From positions 1 to 33,312 of the forward strand of contig CAMTVO010000032.1 of the NCBI GenBank assembly GCA_947085205.1: 33,312 nucleotides of DNA. The letters run 5' to 3'. The position numbers and the translations under genes are program-made. The DNA comes from an uncultured Nitrospiraceae bacterium. GTDB lineage: Bacteria; Nitrospirota; Thermodesulfovibrionia; Thermodesulfovibrionales; Dissulfurispiraceae. The notes beneath the pieces were generated by a model that saw nothing but the letters and a program-made list of their open reading frames with translations, had not been told where the DNA came from and did not search any database. Every line of letters starts with the position of its first letter. The first letter of the stretch is position 1. Below are positions 3,528 to 15,568 of this stretch, piece by piece.

Positions 3528-4184
3528 TTGGGTCAGAAGACAAATCCAATCGGCAACAGGGTCGGAATAATCAGGACATGGGAATCGAGATGGTTCCTTA
3601 AGAAGGGCTATGCCGACAGTCTCATAGAGGATATAAATGTCCGCAGTCAGATTAAAAAGAAATTATTCCACGCAGGTGTCTCCAAGATAGAGATAGAGAG
3701 GCCGGGGCAGAAGCTTAAGATTATTATTTATACAGCAAGGCCCGGAATAATAATAGGCAAAAGGGGCGCAGAAGTAGAAAAACTTAAAAAAGAAGTCGAA
3801 GGCATCACACGAAAGCAGGTTTCTATTGATATAAAAGAGGTAAGAAAGCCTGAGGTGAATGCACAGCTTGTTGCCGAAAACATTGCGCTTCAGCTTGAAA
3901 AGAGGGTTGCATTCAGGAGGGCATTAAAGAGGGCCGTATCTTCTGCCATGAGGTTCGGCGCTCTAGGAATAAAGGTCCAGTGTTCCGGAAGGTTGGCAGG
4001 CGCCGAGATAGCAAGGTCTGAATGGTACAGGGAAGGAAGGGTTCCTCTCAGCACATTCAGGGCAGATATTGACTACGGCTTTGCAGAATCGAGGACTACT
4101 TATGGGAAGATAGGCATTAAGGTCTGGCTATATCACGGAGATGTTCTTCCTGAGCAGACTATAACTTCTTTGGCAGGAGCGTAA
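3528..4184 (+). CDS. rpsC: 30S ribosomal protein S3
   Basis: [26 protein letters not shown] start after AAGGAGG. Confidence 0.98.
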
Positions 4185-13022: not shown

Positions 13023-14054
13023 ATGGATCTTGTTAAAAAGGGCTTTCAGTTACCCAAAAAGATTATTTTTGACGAGGAAACCCTCACCGATTTTTATGGC
13101 AAGCTAGTAGTAGAGCCGCTTGAGCGCGGCTTCGGGACTACTGTAGGAAATTCGCTGCGCAGGGTTTTGCTTTCCTCTATAGAGGGCGCTGCCGTTACAG
13201 CAGTCAGAATACCCGGTGTTTTACATGAGTTCTCCAAAATAAAGGGTGTTAAAGAAGATATCGTTGACATTTTTTTGAACATAAAGAAGCTCAGATTCAA
13301 GGTGTACGGAGACGGCAAAAAGACAGTTACCGTAAAAGTAAAAGGCCCCAAGGTCGTTACAGGTGAAGACATAGAATGCGTCTCAAATGTAGAGGTGCTT
13401 AACATAGACCACCATATCGCTACCGTGGACAGCGGAACAACGCTTGAAATGGAGATGTATGTAAAGAAGGGAAAAGGCTATGTGCCGGCAGAAATTAATA
13501 AAGAGGAAGGATTGCCTATCGATGTGCTTGCTGTGGATTCCGTATTCAGCCCGATAAAGAAAGTGAACTTCTGGGTAGAAAAGGCGAGGGTAGGAAGGGC
13601 AACAGATTACGACAGGCTGATAATGGAGGTCTGGACAGACGGCAGCATTACTCCCGAGAAAGCGGTAAGCGATGCTGCATCAATACTGATGGACCACCTC
13701 GACCTGTTTATCTTTGTAGAGGAAGAAGAGGCTGCAGACGAGACAGCAGGCACAGCAGTAGTGGCGGCAGCCAATCCTTCTGCGAACGAGAACCTGATGA
13801 AAAACATCGATGAGCTCGAGCTATCCGTAAGGGCATACAATTGCTTGAAGAATGCAAATATCAAAAGCATAGCGGACCTTGTCCAAAAGACAGAGCATGA
13901 GATGCTCAGGACAAAGAATTTCGGCCGCAAGTCTCTGAATGAGATTAAGGAAATACTTCTGAGCATGGGATTAAATTTCGGAATGAGAATAGATGTGGAT
14001 GAATTGCAGGGCAGCGCTGCTCAGAGAGGAGGTAAACAATGCGTCATAAAGTAG
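13023..14054 (+). CDS. rpoA: RNA polymerase alpha subunit
   Basis: EPLERGFGTTVGNSLRRVLLSS, LELSVRAYNCLK, NFGRKSLNEI. Confidence 0.98.
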   Translation: MDLVKKGFQLPKKIIFDEETLTDFYGKLVVEPLERGFGTTVGNSLRRVLLSSIEGAAVTAVRIPGVLHEFSKIKGVKEDIVDIFLNIKKLRFKVYGDGKKTVTVKVKGPKVVTGEDIECVSNVEVLNIDHHIATVDSGTTLEMEMYVKKGKGYVPAEINKEEGLPIDVLAVDSVFSPIKKVNFWVEKARVGRATDYDRLIMEVWTDGSITPEKAVSDAASILMDHLDLFIFVEEEEAADETAGTAVVAAANPSANENLMKNIDELELSVRAYNCLKNANIKSIADLVQKTEHEMLRTKNFGRKSLNEIKEILLSMGLNFGMRIDVDELQGSAAQRGGKQCVIK

Positions 14055-14440
14055 CAGGCAGCAATTTTAACAGAACCGCCAACCAGAGAAAGGCATTGCT
14101 AAGAGGACTTGTATCATCGCTTTTTGATCACCAGAGGATAGAGACAACGCTTGCAAAGGCAAAGGCCATTAAGGGAATAGCAGAAGAACTGGTTACCTTC
14201 GGCAAGCGCGGCGACCTCCACTCAAAGAGGATGGTTATGTCTTATATCCCCAACAGGACTGTTGTTGCAAAGCTTTTTTCAGAAATAGCGCCGAGGTTTG
14301 CAGACAGAAACGGAGGCTATCTGAGAATAATCCAGACAAGGCAAAGGGTTAATGACAGAGCGCCTATGGCCATCATCGAGTTTATAGATTACGAAGACAT
14401 TAAAGTGAAACCTTCTGAAAAGGAGCGCAAGAAGGAATGA
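14039..14440 (+). CDS. rplQ: 50S ribosomal protein L17
   Basis: MRHK, RIETTLAKAK, RNGGYLRI. Confidence 0.97.
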   Translation: MRHKVAGSNFNRTANQRKALLRGLVSSLFDHQRIETTLAKAKAIKGIAEELVTFGKRGDLHSKRMVMSYIPNRTVVAKLFSEIAPRFADRNGGYLRIIQTRQRVNDRAPMAIIEFIDYEDIKVKPSEKERKKE

Positions 14441-14571
14441 GCGACATACTTATCGGAGCAGGCATAATCTTAGTATGGGTAGTTCTGCAATTTTTTGTAT
14501 TTCCCAAGCTCGGCATTCCTACTTGAGCAGTTCCCCAAAAGGGTTCGGAGAACTCAAAGAAGTGTAAATAA
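14437..14571 (+). CDS. Small single-TM protein: 29 aa to UGA (14524-14526) or 44 aa if UGA is read as Sec; candidate selenoprotein
   Basis: ATGA overlap with the rplQ stop; MSDILIGAGIILVWVVLQFFVFPKLGIPT-(UGA)-AVPQKGSENSKKCK-TAA; hairpin right after UGA; lies before the operon terminator. Confidence 0.6.
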
Positions 14572-14600
14572 TCAGATATAGAGATATTTATAAGGAAACG

Positions 14601-14625
14601 GGATTCGCAAAGCGAATCCTTTTTT
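14601..14625 (+). terminator. Intrinsic terminator ending the ribosomal protein cluster
   Basis: GGATTCGC-AAA-GCGAATCC followed by TTTTTT. Confidence 0.85.
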
Positions 14626-14857
14626 ATTTACCGTTTTTAGTAATGAGCGAATAACGTTGTGGGTTTGCGCTCTGTTATCTGTCCGTTGCGGGCAATTCCT
14701 TTTTTTCATCTTATCTAATATTCTTTTCTTAATCGGTTCTGCTTCTGTTTGAATTATTTTGATTTGTTCTCTTACTGACAGATGTTTCATCCTTGTGAAA
14801 CGAGGAATCTTTTACTATCAATGAGTTATAAGACCTCTCGCGGAGCCTGTCCTAATT

Positions 14858-15119
14858 GGGTCTTCATGAAATAGTGTGGGTAAAAAGTGATAAGTTGAGA
14901 GGTGTAGATTGGCTCTGGGTAATGAAAAAATGGGTTCAAGATGTGTGAGAAAATCTGGTAAGATTACCTATGGGGGAAAGCGGTTATTCCAATACGAATC
15001 AAATGGAACGTTTAACATATTGTTGTCATTCCCCGGCCCCCGATCGCAGTCGAGGGCATGCTTAATCGGGGAATGACATGATTTTGCAAGAATTTACCCA
15101 CTTGATTACGCGAAGACCC
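14858..15119. mobile_element. MITE-like 262-bp element with 27-bp imperfect terminal inverted repeats
   Basis: GGGTCTTCATGAAATAGTGTGGGTAAA vs reverse complement of right end GGGTCTTCGCGTAATCAAGTGGGTAAA (21/27 identical); no transposase ORF. Confidence 0.6.
15024..15078. repeat. REP-like palindrome inside the MITE
   Basis: TGTCATTCCCCG ... CGGGGAATGACA, perfect 12-bp inverted repeat. Confidence 0.75.
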
Positions 15120-15306
15120 ACTTTATTGTTCCAGTTTGCAAGCAAATAAACATAATATCTTCCAATTGCAAGCATTTAAGATTTCTCACTTCGTTCGAAA
15201 TGACAATATTACAGCTTATTATATTCCCCTCCCCCTTACTTTAGGGCAGAACCTATTGTCTTATCAAACTTTTTTGTTAAATTTTTCATAAAACTTTTGA
15301 CATTAC

Positions 15307-15348
15307 CTAGTCAATGGCGATATCGGTATCAACGATGACAGTTTGCAT
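15307..15348 (-). pseudogene. Truncated PIN-domain (VapC-like) toxin
   Basis: MQTVIVDTDIAID* matches the PIN N-terminal hhDT(N/D)hhhD pattern; overlaps the antitoxin 3' end; stop after 13 codons. Confidence 0.7.
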
Positions 15349-15568
15349 ACCTGCGCCCTTTTTCTTTTCTGAGCTCCGTGACAATCTCTACGCTGCTCTT
15401 ATCACGCTCTTTCCATTTGCCGAAGCTTGCCACAGCCTTCTCGACATTCTTCTTTCTTATATACTCTTTAAGGGCTTCGGTAACAAGCGCACTAAAATTG
15501 TCAGATGTCTTTTTAGCTTCTGAGAGAACATCTTCAGGTATTGTTATAGATGTTTTAATAAGCGACAT
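15329..15568 (-). CDS. Type II antitoxin, ribbon-helix-helix (VapB/CcdA-like)
   Basis: KTSITIPEDVL..AKK..NFSALVTEALKEY; AAGGAGG upstream; coupled to the PIN fragment. Confidence 0.75.
   Translation of the reverse strand: MSLIKTSITIPEDVLSEAKKTSDNFSALVTEALKEYIRKKNVEKAVASFGKWKERDKSSVEIVTELRKEKGRRYANCHR

Follow-up and report, generated by a model that had tools for sequence, protein, structure and literature searches.

A predicted 44-residue membrane selenoprotein encoded behind rplQ in an uncultured Nitrospiraceae bacterium

The DNA analysed here (the window, 33,312 nucleotides from an uncultured Nitrospiraceae bacterium of the class Thermodesulfovibrionia) contains the spc and alpha ribosomal clusters, with rpoA and rplQ as terminal genes. 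rplQ is the final ribosomal gene of the alpha operon, and secY lies within the same cluster. A small reading frame starts on the rplQ stop codon, its ATG (14437-14439) overlapping the TGA of rplQ (14438-14440) as ATGA, and runs through 29 codons to a TGA at 14524-14526 and then through a further 14 codons to a TAA at 14569-14571. A first-pass annotation had the coordinates, the ATGA coupling and the frame right, and the terminator it placed downstream corresponds to a terminator-like hairpin with a T run. The features are listed below.

14039..14440, + strand, rplQ, encoding 50S protein L17 (TIGR00059, 131.9 bits against a cut-off of 70.05)
14420..14425, + strand, AAGGAG inside rplQ, 11 nt upstream of the ATG, Shine-Dalgarno-like in sequence and putatively in function
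14437..14571, + strand, predicted small selenoprotein gene, 44 codons plus TAA, or 29 codons with the UGA as stop
14446..14502, + strand, predicted single transmembrane helix, residues 4-22, likely N-out/C-in (hydropathy, K/R bias, AlphaFold)
14503..14523, + strand, family signature P-K/R-L-G-I/V-x-T, residues 23-29, directly before the predicted selenocysteine (Sec; alignments)
14524..14526, + strand, in-frame UGA, putative selenocysteine 30 (homologue codons, selA co-distribution)
14541..14555, + strand, predicted bacterial SECIS hairpin GGGTTC-GGA-GAACTC, loop G at +21 from the UGA (conservation, covariation, consensus model)
14563..14565, + strand, TGT codon of Cys43, 13 residues past Sec, a putative partner thiol
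14600..14630, + strand, intrinsic-terminator-like hairpin with a T run, downstream of the small gene

Positions 14226-14576 are covered, with 0 differences, by a contig of an independent DNA run, and the TGA is thus no assembly error. A metatranscriptome contig of 151 nt lies on 14445-14576 with one difference, carries no strand information and could stem from DNA carry-over. Other short metatranscriptome contigs lie on rpoA and rplQ as separate contigs, with no joint transcript visible. From the ATGA overlap and the terminator, the small gene would be co-transcribed with the ribosomal cluster; a crude scan located a terminator after the gene in 24 of 83 loci of the class. Further downstream, positions 15023-15075 hold a 53-nt palindromic REP-like element (-31.5 kcal/mol for a 70-nt stretch), of which five more partial copies occur elsewhere in the genome. 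A 79-residue ORF on the minus strand (15329-15568), which we take to be VapB-type antitoxin-like, overlaps the start of a PIN-domain-like frame (about 15290-15345, minus strand) that stops after 15 codons, so that the toxin gene seems broken.

Homologues of the small protein were collected within the class, where the single-protein query matched 98 of 201 genomes and a 48-sequence profile matched 101, with one in-frame TGA in each best match. Ninety class loci were fetched and three were dropped as spurious: L052 in genome G096, which has no motif and is absent from the 48-sequence profile matches, and the second matches in G130 (L089, inside an unrelated ORF) and G132 (L094). The 87 loci left come from 87 of the 101 genomes and include the gene's own. 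Codon 30 was TGA in all 87 (85 in an automatic set, 2 read by hand), and past it the frame extends for 14-31 residues in 84 of 85 members, the last one running off its contig. For 13 codons after the UGA this frame is free of stops in 84/84 members, against 15/84 and 57/84 for the other two frames. Differences between 42 close pairs were distributed over codon positions 1/2/3 as 127/31/384 upstream of the UGA and as 129/150/221 downstream of it, where the residue signal is weak.

The family extends far beyond the class. A scan of GTDB genomes, with a pattern leaving codon 30 free, confirmed at least 536 loci among 600 candidates, and the best 80 of these, ranked by likeness to a Cys-form query, derive from Planctomycetota, Acidobacteriota, Myxococcales, Desulfobacterales, Spirochaetota, Melainabacteria, Chloroflexota and other groups. 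In the best 80, codon 30 was TGA in 72, TGC in five and TGT in three, and neither TAA nor TAG occurred in any of the 167 members read there and in the class. The stop that ends the extension uses all three codons (60 TGA, 46 TAA and 42 TAG of 149). A profile search retrieved 1464 representatives at E up to 0.001. Among 193 database proteins, 143 end right before position 30, 34 have Cys there, eight Trp, three Gly and one Arg; the rest are two without the motif and two long repeat proteins, which were dropped as spurious. The Trp and Gly residues probably come from gene callers using other genetic codes, as we presume.

The 143 shortened entries bear out the earlier statement that gene callers miss the full product, and they would equally be expected if the UGA were an ordinary stop and the product a 29-residue membrane peptide, a reading to which the low residue conservation past the UGA also lends itself. 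An ordinary stop would nonetheless drift to TAA or TAG, as the stop of the extension does, and this was seen in 0/167 members. In the Cys forms, moreover, the frame continues across the position, and these forms go with a lack of selA; the hairpin behind the UGA covaries as well, so that termination as the sole outcome is hardly credible.

The genome, 89.7% complete, contains selA, selB and selD above cut-offs, the selD gene itself carrying an in-frame TGA, together with a tRNA-Sec gene (selC) with anticodon TCA. In the class, selA was found in 188 of 201 genomes. Three class genomes with a match to the gene lacked selA; two of these have selB, and G196 (92% complete) has neither. Outside the class, selA was found in 15 of 16 TGA-form genomes (16 picked from 72), one being without it, versus two of eight Cys-form genomes (Fisher p = 0.0013, with kin that are not independent and genome completeness not given). 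The first-pass annotation had presented the gene as a candidate selenoprotein, and this proposal gains support on every side: the homologues have TGA (87/87 in the class, 72 of the best 80 elsewhere) or Cys (the other eight of these 80 loci, and 34 of the 46 database proteins extending beyond position 29), TAA and TAG are missing, the frame stays open beyond the codon with a Cys conserved in it, and selA, selB, selC and selD are all present.

Several other observations concern selenocysteine in this genome and class. A 119-nt match to the tRNA-Sec model at 4307-4425 of contig C52 (minus strand; 55.2 bits, above cut-off) was not called by ARAGORN and is possibly an unusual or interrupted tRNA. 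Genes with a UGA and a hairpin occur at C2:30493, C59:15079, C22:11145, C38:33910, C38:34783, C38:37745, C46:2962 and C16:8844; by their motifs we assume them to be DsbG/C, a peroxiredoxin, FdhA, a YeeE/YedE-type protein (possibly with two UGAs), a rhodanese and two unnamed genes. Two NuoB genes (C28 near 23583 and C59 near 36829, both on the minus strand) have TGA for the first Cys of the CC pair, in the context F-G-L-A-U-C-A-I-E-M, each with a hairpin with a CGGGA loop from +23 (L199:1210-1731 and L200), and the C28 copy scores above the NuoB cut-offs. NuoB with UGA is thus a candidate for a selenoprotein not yet listed, whose Sec would stand where an Fe-S ligand does; it did not appear in the accessible parts of a table of 119 selenoprotein families (PMC13188914) or of the deep-Sep supplements.

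Downstream of the UGA, the hairpin at 14541-14555 consists of 6 bp, with a pair probability of about 0.5 and -7.9 kcal/mol for 45 nt. Of 85 N-free class rows, 69 share its register and were used (15 with a shifted register and the spurious L089 were left out); across these 69, its six pairs show 78% pairing and 94 double-sided changes, a level reached by 0/500 shuffles and by no slid version, these figures being inflated by relatedness and by the choice of rows. Hairpins with a loop G and a stem of 4 bp or more were present at 73 of 86 class loci, where the mean of a synonymous-recoding control was 11.7. The corresponding hairpin with a loop G was present at 70 of the 72 other TGA loci (control 16.6) and at four of the eight Cys loci (control 2.3, maximum 4); across the genome, such a hairpin accompanies 8% of all in-frame TGAs. 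The bacterial SECIS consensus asks for a stem of 4-16 bp, a 3-9 nt loop that has G at its first or second position, a distance of 16-37 nt from the UGA and an energy of -7.5 kcal/mol or lower (PMC13188914), values within which the gene's hairpin falls only just. The stem first proposed as SECIS, AGTTC with GAACT plus CCC with GGG, did not hold up: it is a minor fold with a pair probability of about 0.12, not conserved, being 48% paired in the class with covariation reached by 88/500 shuffles.

Taken alone, the gene's own hairpin is weak relative to shuffles (z = -0.95), and it is the weakest among eight Sec-type genes of the genome that were folded, the other seven lying between -8.2 and -18.1 kcal/mol, so that the 29-residue product may be common. 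On this weakness one can build the view that the UGA acts as a selenium-dependent switch or sink, in which the ratio of the 29- and 44-residue forms, or the Sec consumed, would report the selenium supply alongside ribosome synthesis, and in which expression of a coupled downstream gene would, in other phyla, depend on read-through, the stop overlapping or nearly touching the next start in L110, L130, L133, L144 and L161. Here the gene is the last before the terminator, with nothing downstream to gate. That tail and motif are retained in the Cys forms suggests, moreover, that the residue acts chemically; such a switch is accordingly very unlikely. Judged from codons, hairpin and selA distribution together, the gene is real and almost certainly encodes a selenoprotein, with Sec inserted at the UGA.

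The product is predicted to be a single-pass membrane protein. The hydrophobic helix already recognized in the first reading is predicted at residues 4-22 (mean hydropathy 2.69), and the AlphaFold model has one helix at residues 2-24 with low-confidence coil behind it. The gene's own motif is F-P-K-L-G-I-P-T-U, and in the family the helix end and the P-K/R-L-G motif are more conserved than the tail. According to the positive-inside rule, the basic flank of a helix stays cytoplasmic, and K/R are richer on the C-terminal than on the N-terminal side in 156 of 157 members; the tail that bears Sec would therefore be cytoplasmic.

The tail also tends to keep one Cys. Outside the class, Cys stands at +5 or +6 from Sec in 75 of the best 80 of at least 536 loci. 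Inside the class (85 members), it occurs only at +7 to +9 in 27, only at +12 to +20 in 51, at both in one and at neither in six, the main positions being +8 (27), +13 (24) and +14 (16), along with others. In a RplQ tree of 75 rows, made by a quick method and with many forks open, the place of the Cys needs 5-6 changes, of which at least three switches are forced by well-supported branches. The class thus behaves as if one Cys must remain in reach of Sec, and a Cys that is kept while its place shifts fits a resolving thiol on a flexible tail. The move of the partner Cys from +5 to +8 or +13/14 in the class, as read from these alignments, is new here.

The family itself has been listed before. 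A table row labelled 'Unknown (Geobacter lovleyi)', with five organisms, stands in supplementary file 4 of Peng et al. (2016; PMC5029168); the row prints no sequence, and its identity with the present family rests on the shared name. The deep-Sep supplement (Data S1) contains predicted selenoprotein entries with the same helix and motif, given as names, counts and sequences only. Six printed entries resemble the gene by eye in their hydrophobic helix, their L-P-K/R-L/M-G-I/V-x-T-U motif and a short polar tail with Cys, and their motif is the consensus of a wide alignment, including Desulfuromonas and Geothermobacter loci, which matches the class alignment at 99.6% probability in a profile comparison. 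All six have U-x4-C, in contrast to U-x12-C in the gene here and U-x7-C in other class members, but no definition found in the literature makes this spacing required; with its Cys at +13 instead of +5, the gene was therefore filed as a variant of the listed family. The listed family also differs from the class in that the place downstream of rplQ is fixed in the latter, and its range goes far beyond five organisms.

The earlier claim that the protein is unannotated thus stands for the annotation gap, whereas the family is not new to the literature: the supplements of two papers already list it as a predicted selenoprotein of unknown function, without description. The literature search found no description of the family in any main text and no original source of the 'Geobacter lovleyi' label. 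The family was not seen in searches of deep-Sep Table S1, and no matching entry appeared in the accessible part of the table of 119 selenoprotein families (2026 review, PMC13188914). The BSepDB supplement, whose accessible text is possibly incomplete, gave no match for the motifs or for 'hypothetical protein'. Adjoining literature includes the Haft and Gwadz preprint, BSepDB, SelCysML, GOS 2008, the YgaP structure and the MccSep preprint. Pfam had no hit for the gene's protein, 48 class members or seven Cys forms; NCBIfam gave nothing above a curated cut-off (best E-value 0.03, unrelated families); the best PDB match had E = 0.93; positions 14300-15300 had no Rfam match; there was no plasmid match; and close rows of the ESM Atlas were unnamed hypothetical clusters only.

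New here, on the loci counted above, is the range of the family (at least 536 loci in hundreds of genomes and many phyla), about a hundred times the 2016 table. The coupling to rplQ in the class, read from the same loci, is likewise new: the gene immediately upstream is rplQ in 75 of 85 class members, and of the other ten, as read from their sequences, three follow a secG-like, four a DsbC/G-like and one an FKBP-like gene. There was no profile match in 100 of 201 class genomes, including 14/14 of family f5 and 50/50 of family f18, and since most of these have selA the gene is dispensable. In ten of the no-match genomes the region after rplQ was inspected; nine had no such ORF and the tenth held a divergent TGA member, so that the profile undercounts. 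This divergent member (L191, in G056:C42, after rplQ) has no P-K-L motif and has the TGA, the same hairpin and a terminal K-K-C. The rplQ of the same genome has a long tail of five-residue repeats of K/Q/D/A/E/T. No match was obtained in the families of the phylum outside the class (f23-f35).

Like other genes read by bacterial SECIS elements and SelB, the gene combines an in-frame UGA with a stem-loop that has an early loop G at a distance and energy within the consensus. It differs from them in that the SECIS fills almost all of the coding region past Sec in a protein of 44 residues, and in that the product has no thioredoxin fold or enzyme domain. In design, and as an analogy only, it recalls the eukaryotic SelS and SelK, single-pass proteins with a cytoplasmic, disordered C-terminal part containing Sec. 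SelS pairs Sec188 with Cys174, 14 residues apart (PMC3628699), compared with 13 in the gene here; unlike the latter, SelS has 189 residues, with Sec penultimate and after the Cys and the SECIS in the 3' UTR.

A further comparison is with DUF2892/YgaP-like proteins (PF11127), small membrane proteins ending in L-G-I-x-T-C, some with a further Cys 3 to 5 positions on, which are found beside similar RND, SQR-like and ArsR genes and have Sec forms in the class. They have two helices and an invariant C-P, whereas the present family has one helix and no C-P. Only 11-17 columns align, at 14-36% probability, and the invariant C47-P48 of the PF11127 alignment has no counterpart; the likeness is best regarded as a common motif only. 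No PF11127 protein was found in the gene's genome. Among class DUF2892/YgaP-like genes (L242-L261), TGA replaces the invariant Cys (F/W-U-P) in 20/20 TGA-containing matches fetched, most having the same stem GGTGCT...AGCACC with a CGGGAT loop downstream, and no link of DUF2892 or YgaP to Sec was found in the literature searched.

The neighbourhoods outside the class suggest a function. Within 4 kb, rhodanese-domain, MBL-rhodanese, TauE or SQR-like genes occur at 16 of the best 80 loci, in at least four phyla, compared with 1.7% of random windows of one unrelated genome (the gene's own), the loci including kin. SQR, persulfide dioxygenase and rhodaneses form sulfide-oxidation operons (PMC9163753); the SQR and dioxygenase names given to the neighbours here lie below NCBIfam cut-offs. 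Such sulfur genes, RND efflux genes or DUF302 accompany 29 of the 80 loci, and 51 have none of them. Other neighbours in the best 80 are RND efflux genes (13), ECF sigma/anti-sigma genes (12), DUF302 (6) and ArsR-type regulators (5). At L110, a small membrane ORF with a C-A-S-G-T-C-P loop (3744-4001), a Cys-form member whose start it overlaps and a DsbD-thioredoxin gene come one after another, so that two C-x-S-G-x-C peptides stand in one operon.

Because of the sulfur-gene neighbours, the kept but movable Cys and the cytoplasmic tail, the protein is interpreted as a membrane-tethered, cytoplasm-facing Sec-Cys redox or sulfane-sulfur carrier, a role that is likely at about even odds. In the proposed mechanism, ribosomes leaving rplQ would re-initiate on the small gene, SelB would bind the hairpin and Sec would be inserted, all with near certainty. 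The helix is predicted to insert N-out/C-in, so that Sec30 would lie in a flexible, basic tail, about seven residues away from the membrane. There Sec30 may attack a persulfide, polysulfide or disulfide, a step that as a whole has roughly equal chances of being right or wrong. The protein's Cys would resolve the adduct to a selenenylsulfide, and cytoplasmic thiol systems would reduce this again; the Cys in question is Cys43 in the gene here, while most other phyla have it at +5 and part of the class at +8. For the whole explanation, from SelB read-through to a one-helix, 44-residue selenoprotein acting as a redox or sulfane-sulfur carrier at the cytoplasmic face, we estimate a probability of about 0.55. 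Counting against the sulfur role are the 51 of 80 loci with none of these neighbours, the crude control and the housekeeping genes that neighbour the gene in the class, and against a Sec-Cys carrier the six of 85 class members without a partner Cys in the windows counted. The gene's genome, in addition, had no match to the TauE, SQR-like, DUF302 or rhodanese-YgaP neighbours at 1e-8.

The same neighbours have been weighed for two other roles. The selenoprotein could belong to a membrane machine as a small subunit with an accessory or redox-sensing task; this machine would be an RND transporter in many phyla, or the export and folding machinery in the class. RND or membrane-fusion genes stand within 4 kb in 13/80 loci; in L130, L133 and L161 the gaps before a membrane-fusion gene are -4 to 3 nt, and several members come right after an RND gene. 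In the class the gene sits behind rplQ, in the cluster of secY, or else behind the secG-, DsbC/G- or FKBP-like genes, and the better conservation of the helix end and P-K/R-L-G over the tail is what a binding surface would impose. Yet no one neighbour is retained across the family, the RND neighbours are often inside sulfur clusters, and these sites are also just where strongly expressed operons end, which leaves this role rather unlikely. Alternatively, Sec and Cys of the selenoprotein could serve as ligands for a soft metal or metalloid (Cu, Hg or As), which would make the protein a sensor or chaperone located at the membrane. Besides the five ArsR-type regulators, the 80 loci have five arsenite-methyltransferase-like genes and three heavy-metal ATPases, with an ArsA-like ATPase adjoining one locus, and a U/C-x4-C motif could chelate on general grounds. 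The Sec-Cys spacing of 5 to 14 residues is loose for a fixed metal site, however, and in these loci the ArsR-type regulators flank sulfur clusters, so that metal binding seems improbable.

The carrier reading leaves room for a bolder and quite unlikely view, in which few bacterial selenoproteins would be as widespread as this family and no membrane selenoprotein smaller, the protein being no more than a Sec-Cys redox relay on one helix. In the class it would have been built into the ribosomal/secY operon, and in sister lineages placed after secG or a Dsb-type oxidase, for membrane-protein biogenesis and not for sulfur detoxification. If this were true, selenium supply would be tied to growth, and the protein would be a bacterial counterpart in design to SelK and SelS. 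More generally, with no Pfam or NCBIfam model and with annotation cutting the protein at 29 residues or omitting it, a selenoprotein would be missing from hundreds of genomes. Where the earlier listings offered a convenience name and five organisms, testable leads to function now come from the range of the family, from its Cys forms and their link to a lack of selA, and from the neighbourhoods. Cultured Desulfuromonadia appear to carry the family (deep-Sep Data S1), which would make a laboratory test possible. A Sec peptide coupled to rplQ would place selenocysteine insertion in the output of a core ribosomal operon.
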